Assembly: GCF_003334355.1 (NCBI RefSeq)
Contig: NZ_QOWP01000118.1
From: Escherichia coli
Lineage (GTDB): Bacteria; Pseudomonadota; Gammaproteobacteria; Enterobacterales; Enterobacteriaceae
Reading direction: 5' to 3' (one strand)
Length of the DNA: 272 bases
In this document: piece after piece, positions 86 to 272 of the stretch
How the letters are laid out: the number at the start of each line of letters is the position of its first letter
How positions within the stretch are numbered: position 1 is the first letter of the stretch
Translations under genes and position numbers: made by a program
Notes under the pieces: generated by a model
Told to the model about the DNA's origin: nothing
The model's input: only the letters and a program-made list of their open reading frames with translations
Databases searched by the model: none

Positions 86-98
86 AATGGTGACAAAT
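86..98. other. Head-to-head inter-PU linker (13 bp, aatggtgacaaat), between the Y head and the next Z2 head; recurs at 179-191 as agtggtggcaaat
   Basis: Conserved spacer joining consecutive units; the unit-2 copy carries two A to G transitions (180, 186). Positions 1-5 (caaat) are the 3' end of a preceding linker, which implies the array continues upstream of the window. Confidence 0.6.
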
Positions 99-127
99 GC
101 CTGATGCGCTACGCTTATCAGGCCTAC
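99..127 (+). repeat. REP palindromic unit, Z2-type (copy 2)
   Basis: Identical to 6-34. Confidence 0.85.
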
Positions 128-144
128 AGATTCTCGCGCCACTC

Positions 145-178
145 GTAGGCCGGATAAGGCGTCCACGCCGCATCCGGC
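145..178 (-). repeat. REP palindromic unit, Y-type (copy 2, loop variant)
   Basis: Same as 52-85 except T to C at 163 (loop ttca becomes tcca). Both stems intact. Confidence 0.88.
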
Positions 179-191
179 AGTGGTGGCAAAT

Positions 192-220
192 GCCTGATGC
201 GCTACGCTTATCAGGCCTAC
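192..220 (+). repeat. REP palindromic unit, Z2-type (copy 3)
   Basis: Identical to 6-34. Confidence 0.85.
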
Positions 221-237
221 AGATTCTTGCGCCATTC

Positions 238-271
238 GTAGGCCGGATAAGGCGTTCACGCCGCATCCGGC
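238..271 (-). repeat. REP palindromic unit, Y-type (copy 3)
   Basis: Identical to 52-85. The window ends one base after the PU. Confidence 0.88.
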
Positions 272-272
272 A

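Follow-up and report, generated by a model that had tools for sequence, protein, structure and literature searches.

A plus-strand reading frame and the miscalled gene yahH in REP23, a BIME-2 array of the yahG-yahI spacer of Escherichia coli

Position and Architecture of the Array

The window (the whole stretch of DNA analyzed here, 272 nt) is very probably non-coding DNA, an internal piece of REP23, the BIME-2 array that separates yahG from yahI in Escherichia coli. It matches the genome of E. coli H1827/12 over its full length (272/272, 100% identity; L002 3001-3272), within the yahG-yahI spacer, and REP23 is the K-12 name of the array in that spacer (PMC4765031, PMC11551758). A preliminary description made from the letters of the window had pointed to an open reading frame on the plus strand and regarded it as a spurious product of REP sequence. 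Our analysis confirmed this observation and supports that reading, with one correction, as the frame that is actually miscalled lies on the other strand.

The array of H1827/12 comprises 5.9 units, and sequences matching the element occur at a median of about 27 places per genome. The neighboring genes yahE, yahF/fdrA, yahG, yahI, yahJ and yahK are all on the minus strand of the window, so the plus-strand frame is antisense to the operon. The XL1-Blue assembly (L001; NZ_CP081007.1 4647818-4654089) also contains a copy identical to the window, close to the end of the record and remote from yahG and yahI. It is embedded in a patchwork of truncated pieces of IS, RHS, phage and tRNA sequence. This displaced copy looks like an assembly artefact.

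TRF analysis revealed a tandem array over positions 1-272, with a period of 93, 2.9 copies arranged head-to-tail, 95% matches and no indels. Each 93-bp unit is composed, in this order, of a 30-nt z2 REP hairpin, a 17-nt linker, a 35-nt y REP hairpin in inverse orientation and an 11-nt linker. The REP copies were located by a Hamming scan against the y and z2 sequences, which gave zero-mismatch matches of both types in every unit of the window. The features of the window are as follows.

5..34, minus strand: z2-type REP, copy 1; zero mismatches to the z2 reference; forms a hairpin
35..51, no strand: short (S) linker, copy 1, head-to-head, 17 nt; the most variable part of the unit
52..86, plus strand: y-type REP, copy 1; GTAG at 52-55
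87..97, no strand: tail-to-tail linker, copy 1, 11 nt, ATGGTGACAAA
98..127, minus strand: z2-type REP, copy 2
128..144, no strand: S linker, copy 2; substitutions at 135 and 142
145..179, plus strand: y-type REP, copy 2; substitution at 163, in the hairpin loop
180..190, no strand: tail-to-tail linker, copy 2, GTGGTGGCAAA; substitutions at 180 and 186, the latter a stop-loss
191..220, minus strand: z2-type REP, copy 3
221..237, no strand: S linker, copy 3
238..272, plus strand: y-type REP, copy 3; its last base is the end of the window
55..124, plus strand: match to Rfam naRNA4 (RF02564), covering y hairpin, linker and z2 hairpin; 78.0 bits, gathering score 59.5
148..217, plus strand: second copy of the Rfam naRNA4 (RF02564) match; 72.4 bits
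4..93, plus strand: unit-1 ORF of 29 codons, the frame of the preliminary description; judged spurious
97..272, plus strand: stop-loss ORF, 58 codons stop-free to the end of the window; judged spurious
1..272, minus strand: minus frame 2, the frame of yahH (b0322), annotated by PGAP as 'protein YahH' or as 'hypothetical protein'; judged a miscalled gene
1..272, minus strand: minus frame 1, the frame of X002 (MRRERLIRPTNGARICRPDK...), claimed to be translated in EHEC

The tetranucleotide GTAG recurs at 145-148 and 238-241, and its complement CTAC is found at 31-34, 124-127 and 217-220; on the plus strand the z2 REP reads as an iREP (TGCC...CTAC), with its GTAG head on the minus strand. The reverse complement of the first y REP, together with two flanking bases, is the published 36-nt REP consensus GCCGGATGCGGCGTGAACGCCTTATCCGGCCTACGA (PMC12306157). 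This identity and the naRNA4 matches bear out the REP-derived nature of the element, which the preliminary description had assumed. The first 11-nt linker includes the TGA stop (91-93), the Shine-Dalgarno-like GGTGA (89-93) and the A of the ATG at 97-99. RNA folding gave a z-score of about -6 relative to shuffled sequences on both strands.

BIME-2 elements are defined by y and z2 REPs (imperfect palindromes of 30-40 nt) in inverse orientation, separated by an S linker and present in tandem copies whose number varies between strains (PMC3333891). All of these properties were found here: the two REP types, GTAG 5' of the foot of the palindrome, the inverse REP/iREP pair with an S linker, and variable tandem copies. 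The array thus agrees with the BIME-2 element REP23 in REP arrangement, S linker, near-identical copies, variable copy number and intergenic position inside an operon, and its 93-bp period (17-nt plus 11-nt linkers) is specific to REP23, other BIME arrays having periods of 100 and 91 bp. BIME-1 was considered and ruled out, as there is no z1 REP and no long L linker (the BIME-1 type with an IHF site, for which linkers of 17 nt and 11 nt are too small), and the element is multi-copy.

Variation Among Strains and Units

Anchoring on the unique flanks revealed 0, 1, 2, 3, 4, 5 or 6 units in the yahG-yahI spacer, depending on the E. coli strain (10 genomes). The array of H1827/12 differs from that of K-12 by an exact duplication of two units (186 bp). 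In strain MLI121 (L010 445-538) there is no REP at the locus, and the 94-nt spacer carries a different GC-rich hairpin, CCCTTCTCCC-TTCT-GGGGAGAGGG.

For comparison of the units themselves, 26 units from nine genomes were used, a small sample in which 16 units were distinct at full length and 14 over the 82-column z2-S-y part. Variable columns were significantly more frequent in the linkers (12/28) than in the REP bodies (9/65; P-value = 0.0055, Fisher test), and all five differences within the window fall in linkers or in a hairpin loop. The difference between stem and non-stem columns was not significant (P-value = 0.13, Fisher test), because four of the six variable stem columns make up two compensatory pairs. 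Base pairing was retained in 99% of the stem cells (97.9% of cells for the z2 hairpin across the 14 distinct units, and 100% for the y REP stem, where the two compensatory changes occur). Both of these GC>AU pairs come from a single unit, and their count was reached in 1 of 500 shuffles. In the yahG-proximal unit of strain 04-00955 (L011), the y REP has changed from GGCG...CGCC to GACA...TGTC, that is, by two compensatory GC>AT changes with the inner stem kept.

No excess of synonymous or third-position changes was found in any of the three open frames (P-value = 0.73 for the plus-strand frame, 0.48 for the YahH frame and 0.22 for the X002 frame). The variants were spread flatly over the codon positions, and the synonymous counts (6-8 of 22 variants) were all within the null range. 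Furthermore, the S linker has lost 1 nt in 6 of the 26 units, which are thus 92 nt long. A Pfam search with the three open frames returned no match at E ≤ 0.001. Neither amino-acid conservation, nor constancy of frame and presence within the species, nor homology to a protein family was found for any open frame. The pattern of variation is structure-like, not coding-like.

The Plus-Strand Frame

In plus frame 1, the first unit reads from ATG (4-6) to TGA (91-93), and the second from ATG (97-99) through a G at 186, which turns the TGA into TGG. These letters were all as the preliminary description had given them. In H1827/12 the second frame (L002 3097-3279) meets a TGA 7 nt beyond the end of the window and encodes 60 aa. 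Exactly five positions distinguish unit 1 from unit 2 (135, 142, 163, 180 and 186 of the window; 42, 49, 70, 87 and 93 of the unit), and the effects in this frame (L>L, F>L, S>P, Q>Q and stop>W) again amount to two synonymous and two missense substitutions and a single stop-loss. The rare codons listed earlier (CTA, CGG, ATA and AGG) account for 12 of the 58 codons (21%). The view that the frame has no convincing Shine-Dalgarno sequence was slightly overstated, as GGUGA (89-93) and GGUGG (182-186) are located 3 nt upstream of the ATGs, with pairing energies of -7.2 and -7.4 kcal/mol to the 16S tail; pairing at -6 or better was obtained for about 13% of random 20-mers.

Three of the six frames of unit 2 are stop-free, and at least three stop-free frames were present in 27% of dinucleotide shuffles; the open plus-strand frame is no more than chance would yield. 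At the protein level, a homology search with this frame found four weak, near-singleton proteins among 5.8 billion. In the EDL933 array the TGA is retained in every unit, which breaks the plus-strand frame into 29-aa pieces, and the 60-aa form is therefore not conserved. The absence of a Pfam match and of a synonymous excess, the antisense orientation to the flanking genes and the interruption in EDL933 are all in line with a spurious ORF.

The role assigned to the period was sound as well. In MG1655, the in-array ORFs are capped at 66 aa in REP325 (yjdM-yjdN; period 100) and at 76 aa in the tldD-yhdP array (period 91); neither array has an annotated CDS. REP23, with its 93-bp period, is shorter than both and has spanning ORFs of 123 and 141 aa. 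The idea that a period divisible by three keeps frames open holds because the 100- and 91-bp arrays lack an array-spanning ORF while the 93-bp array has two. A third control, the sucB-sucC spacer, was not usable because TRF detected no array in it. The GC-rich palindromes happen to be stop-free in two or three of the six frames; since the period is exactly 31 codons, any stop-free frame runs on through every copy. The linkers vary freely, and one such change, A>G at 186, deletes the sole stop of plus frame 1 in some units.

Minus-Strand Frames and yahH

Minus frames 1 and 2, which the preliminary description had missed, are stop-free across the whole window. Minus frame 2 is the frame of yahH ('putative uncharacterized protein YahH'), a gene of 106 aa with a GTG start in MG1655. 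Like the plus-strand ORF, yahH is an ORF created by the 93-bp periodicity, and it spans the whole window, but it lies on the other strand. The annotation survey covered 5,426 genomes in RefSeq. Of 60 records sampled at even intervals, about 22 had one unit and no CDS, and a CDS was annotated only where there were at least three units. The CDS was in minus frame 2 in all seven annotated records (six with the CDS at the yahG-yahI spacer, together with the displaced XL1-Blue copy). The lengths of YahH (67, 98, 106, 121, 155 and 160 aa) track the unit number, and YahH has neither a Shine-Dalgarno sequence (-1.7 to -3.8 kcal/mol) nor a Pfam match. The gene was once dropped from the K-12 annotation because its translation was considered improbable (PMC4765031) and is present in current RefSeq records. 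We conclude that yahH is a miscalled gene and that the annotation hazard is already realized on the minus strand. The hazard raised in the preliminary description is thus real on this strand, in minus frame 2, whereas the plus-strand frame to which it had been attached is almost never called.

The 160-aa repeat ORF (L002 2846-3328, minus strand) scored 50.2 bits against NCBIfam NF033228, 'cell division inhibitor SidA', for which the curated cutoff is 35, and the 98-aa K-12 version scored 28 bits. Only the adding-up of a 13-residue match from repeat to repeat lifts the score over the cutoff. This and other NCBIfam hits (DNA polymerase III delta' among them) come from short repeated stretches and were rejected as artefacts of low complexity or of repetition. 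An exact-sequence look-up of YahH, X002 and the plus-frame peptide in a collection of 15 billion proteins gave no match, although absence from this index proves nothing.

Minus frame 1 contains X002. Neuhaus et al. (2016) reported that in EHEC EDL933 ribosome footprints cover 'X002 = yahH', and they proposed that the locus serves three functions (PMC4765031). For X002 they gave an RPKM of 56, a coverage of 0.61 and an RCV of 0.64 and considered it 'quite probably' translated (PMC4765031). Footprints, which the preliminary description had named as evidence against its reading, have thus been published for the locus, but in minus frame 1, with neither a periodicity analysis nor MS peptides (PMC4765031). 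The reads were mapped by Bowtie defaults, and the treatment of multi-mapping reads is unmentioned (PMC4765031). On the EDL933 genome, X002 is a charge-rich ORF of 465 nt (MRRERLIRPTNG...) in minus frame 1 of the window, with an internal frameshift caused by a 92-nt unit. X002 (L004 3260-3724, plus strand) and the annotated YahH CDS (L004 3291-3587, plus strand) are in different frames in EDL933, though published as identical. X002 shares the array and the operon strand with yahH and is the only published translation claim for the element, but its frame is neither that of the annotated YahH nor that of the preliminary description. The predicted tryptic peptides of the open frames include LSGLQILAPLVGR, ESVGLISVAHQAFVTIAGCGVNALSGLR and SASGICHHCR.

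Alternative Readings of the Array

Besides a non-coding BIME-2 array, other roles were considered for this DNA. The main product of the array might be naRNA4-like nucleoid-associated RNAs, which would bind HU and bridge cruciforms as for REP325. The element has the same Y-linker-Z2 two-hairpin unit as REP325, and on the plus strand its matches to RF02564 exceed the gathering score. The strand that passes the threshold is, however, antisense to the operon, and the operon strand, which is the one expected to be transcribed in REP23, scores 53.9 and 52.7 bits, below 59.5. In addition, REP325 differs in its locus (yjdM-yjdN), its period (100 bp) and its longer z hairpin, that of REP23 being 7 nt shorter than the hairpin of the model; HU binding and nucleoid effects are known for REP325 RNA only (PMC4550694), and strains without any REP at the locus exist. 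We regard such a product as unlikely. A further Rfam match, to mir-456 (18 bits, E = 0.2), was dismissed as noise. Translation of the plus strand, as a small ORF in each unit with its own GGUGA-N3-AUG start and as a 60-aa fusion where A>G removes the stop, is extremely improbable. An ATG is present in each unit, and the Shine-Dalgarno-like motif has a suitable spacing and lies in the single-stranded linker between the hairpins. Against this, T98 and G99 of the start codon are within the z2 REP and G99 is paired in the stem, the sole promoter-like site on that strand is a 9/12 match of a frequency expected by chance, and the variants in the frame comprise 6 synonymous, 13 missense and 3 stop-related changes, in addition to the antisense position, the rare codons, the stops in every EDL933 unit and the scarcity of similar proteins noted above.

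Translation of the operon strand has in its favor the footprint coverage of X002 in EDL933, two frames open through the array on the transcribed strand, and the retention of the yahH CDS by NCBI and GenBank. According to this reading, the yahE-yahJ mRNA would be translated in minus frame 1 (X002) or minus frame 2 (YahH) to yield a repeat protein whose length varies with the unit number, and the locus would combine the roles of DNA element, RNA element and coding sequence. However, the footprint paper and the annotations refer to different frames under one gene name, and the footprint reads, mapped as described, have to be set against the median of about 27 matching places per genome; stable hairpins may also resist RNase I and mimic footprints. 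Neither the X002 nor the YahH start has a Shine-Dalgarno sequence (-1.5 to -3.8 kcal/mol, compared with -11.2 kcal/mol for yahG), many strains have 0-2 units and no ORF, the EDL933 array contains an internal frameshift, and the operon-strand frames show neither a synonymous excess nor a Pfam match, as described above. We therefore consider this reading, including the threefold role of the locus, quite improbable. A variant of it would keep the operon-strand translation (minus frame 1 or 2) that Neuhaus et al. put forward, not for a useful protein but because Rho-dependent attenuation would be relieved by ribosomes crossing the hairpins, which would determine the expression ratio of yahG to yahI. 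If so, the multiple-of-three period and the unit number would tune a translation-dependent polarity switch, but we hold this to be very improbable. The reading that we prefer remains REP23 as a non-coding BIME-2 array.

Discussion

As a BIME-2 array, REP23 would act at the levels of RNA and DNA. The array is probably transcribed on the minus strand of the window, within the yahE-yahJ operon mRNA. REP hairpins can block 3'-5' exonucleases and promote Rho-dependent attenuation, as cited in PMC4765031; by analogy with the family, the hairpins in the operon mRNA probably impede 3'-5' exonucleases and may cause Rho-dependent attenuation ahead of yahI. REPs at most 15 nt from a stop codon are reported to stall terminating ribosomes and to lower the expression of the upstream gene (Liang et al., as cited in PMC12306157). 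The distance from the yahG stop to the first y REP is 12 nt (L002 3366-3380) in K-12, H1827/12, EDL933, 5735 and YZMc10-2 and 22 nt in U13A and MS20658 (L007, L009), so the strains fall on either side of the reported 15-nt limit. In K-12-type strains, the 12-nt spacing would place the REP within the range that lowers yahG translation.

DNA gyrase binds and cleaves BIME-2 elements with a preference for y REPs (PMC6379681), and as DNA the y REPs of REP23 would be preferred gyrase cleavage sites. BIME-2 units are also substrates for cleavage and recombination by TnpA-REP (PMC3333891). Such action, together with unequal recombination or slippage, would explain changes in unit number such as the 186-bp duplication in H1827/12.

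The REP23 element and the yahH problem are already documented, and the significance of the present analysis lies mainly in annotation hygiene, with nothing new about the biology. The locus illustrates clearly how a tandem palindromic repeat with a period divisible by three gives rise to ORFs in several frames. ORFs from the array persist in reference annotations as yahH, with 67-160 aa depending on the strain, and the claims about them conflict, as GenBank and PGAP use one frame and the ribosome-profiling paper another, the two being equated as one gene. The SidA match represents a second possible route by which the array may be mis-annotated. Such calls would disappear if predicted CDSs located entirely within REP/BIME arrays were filtered out.
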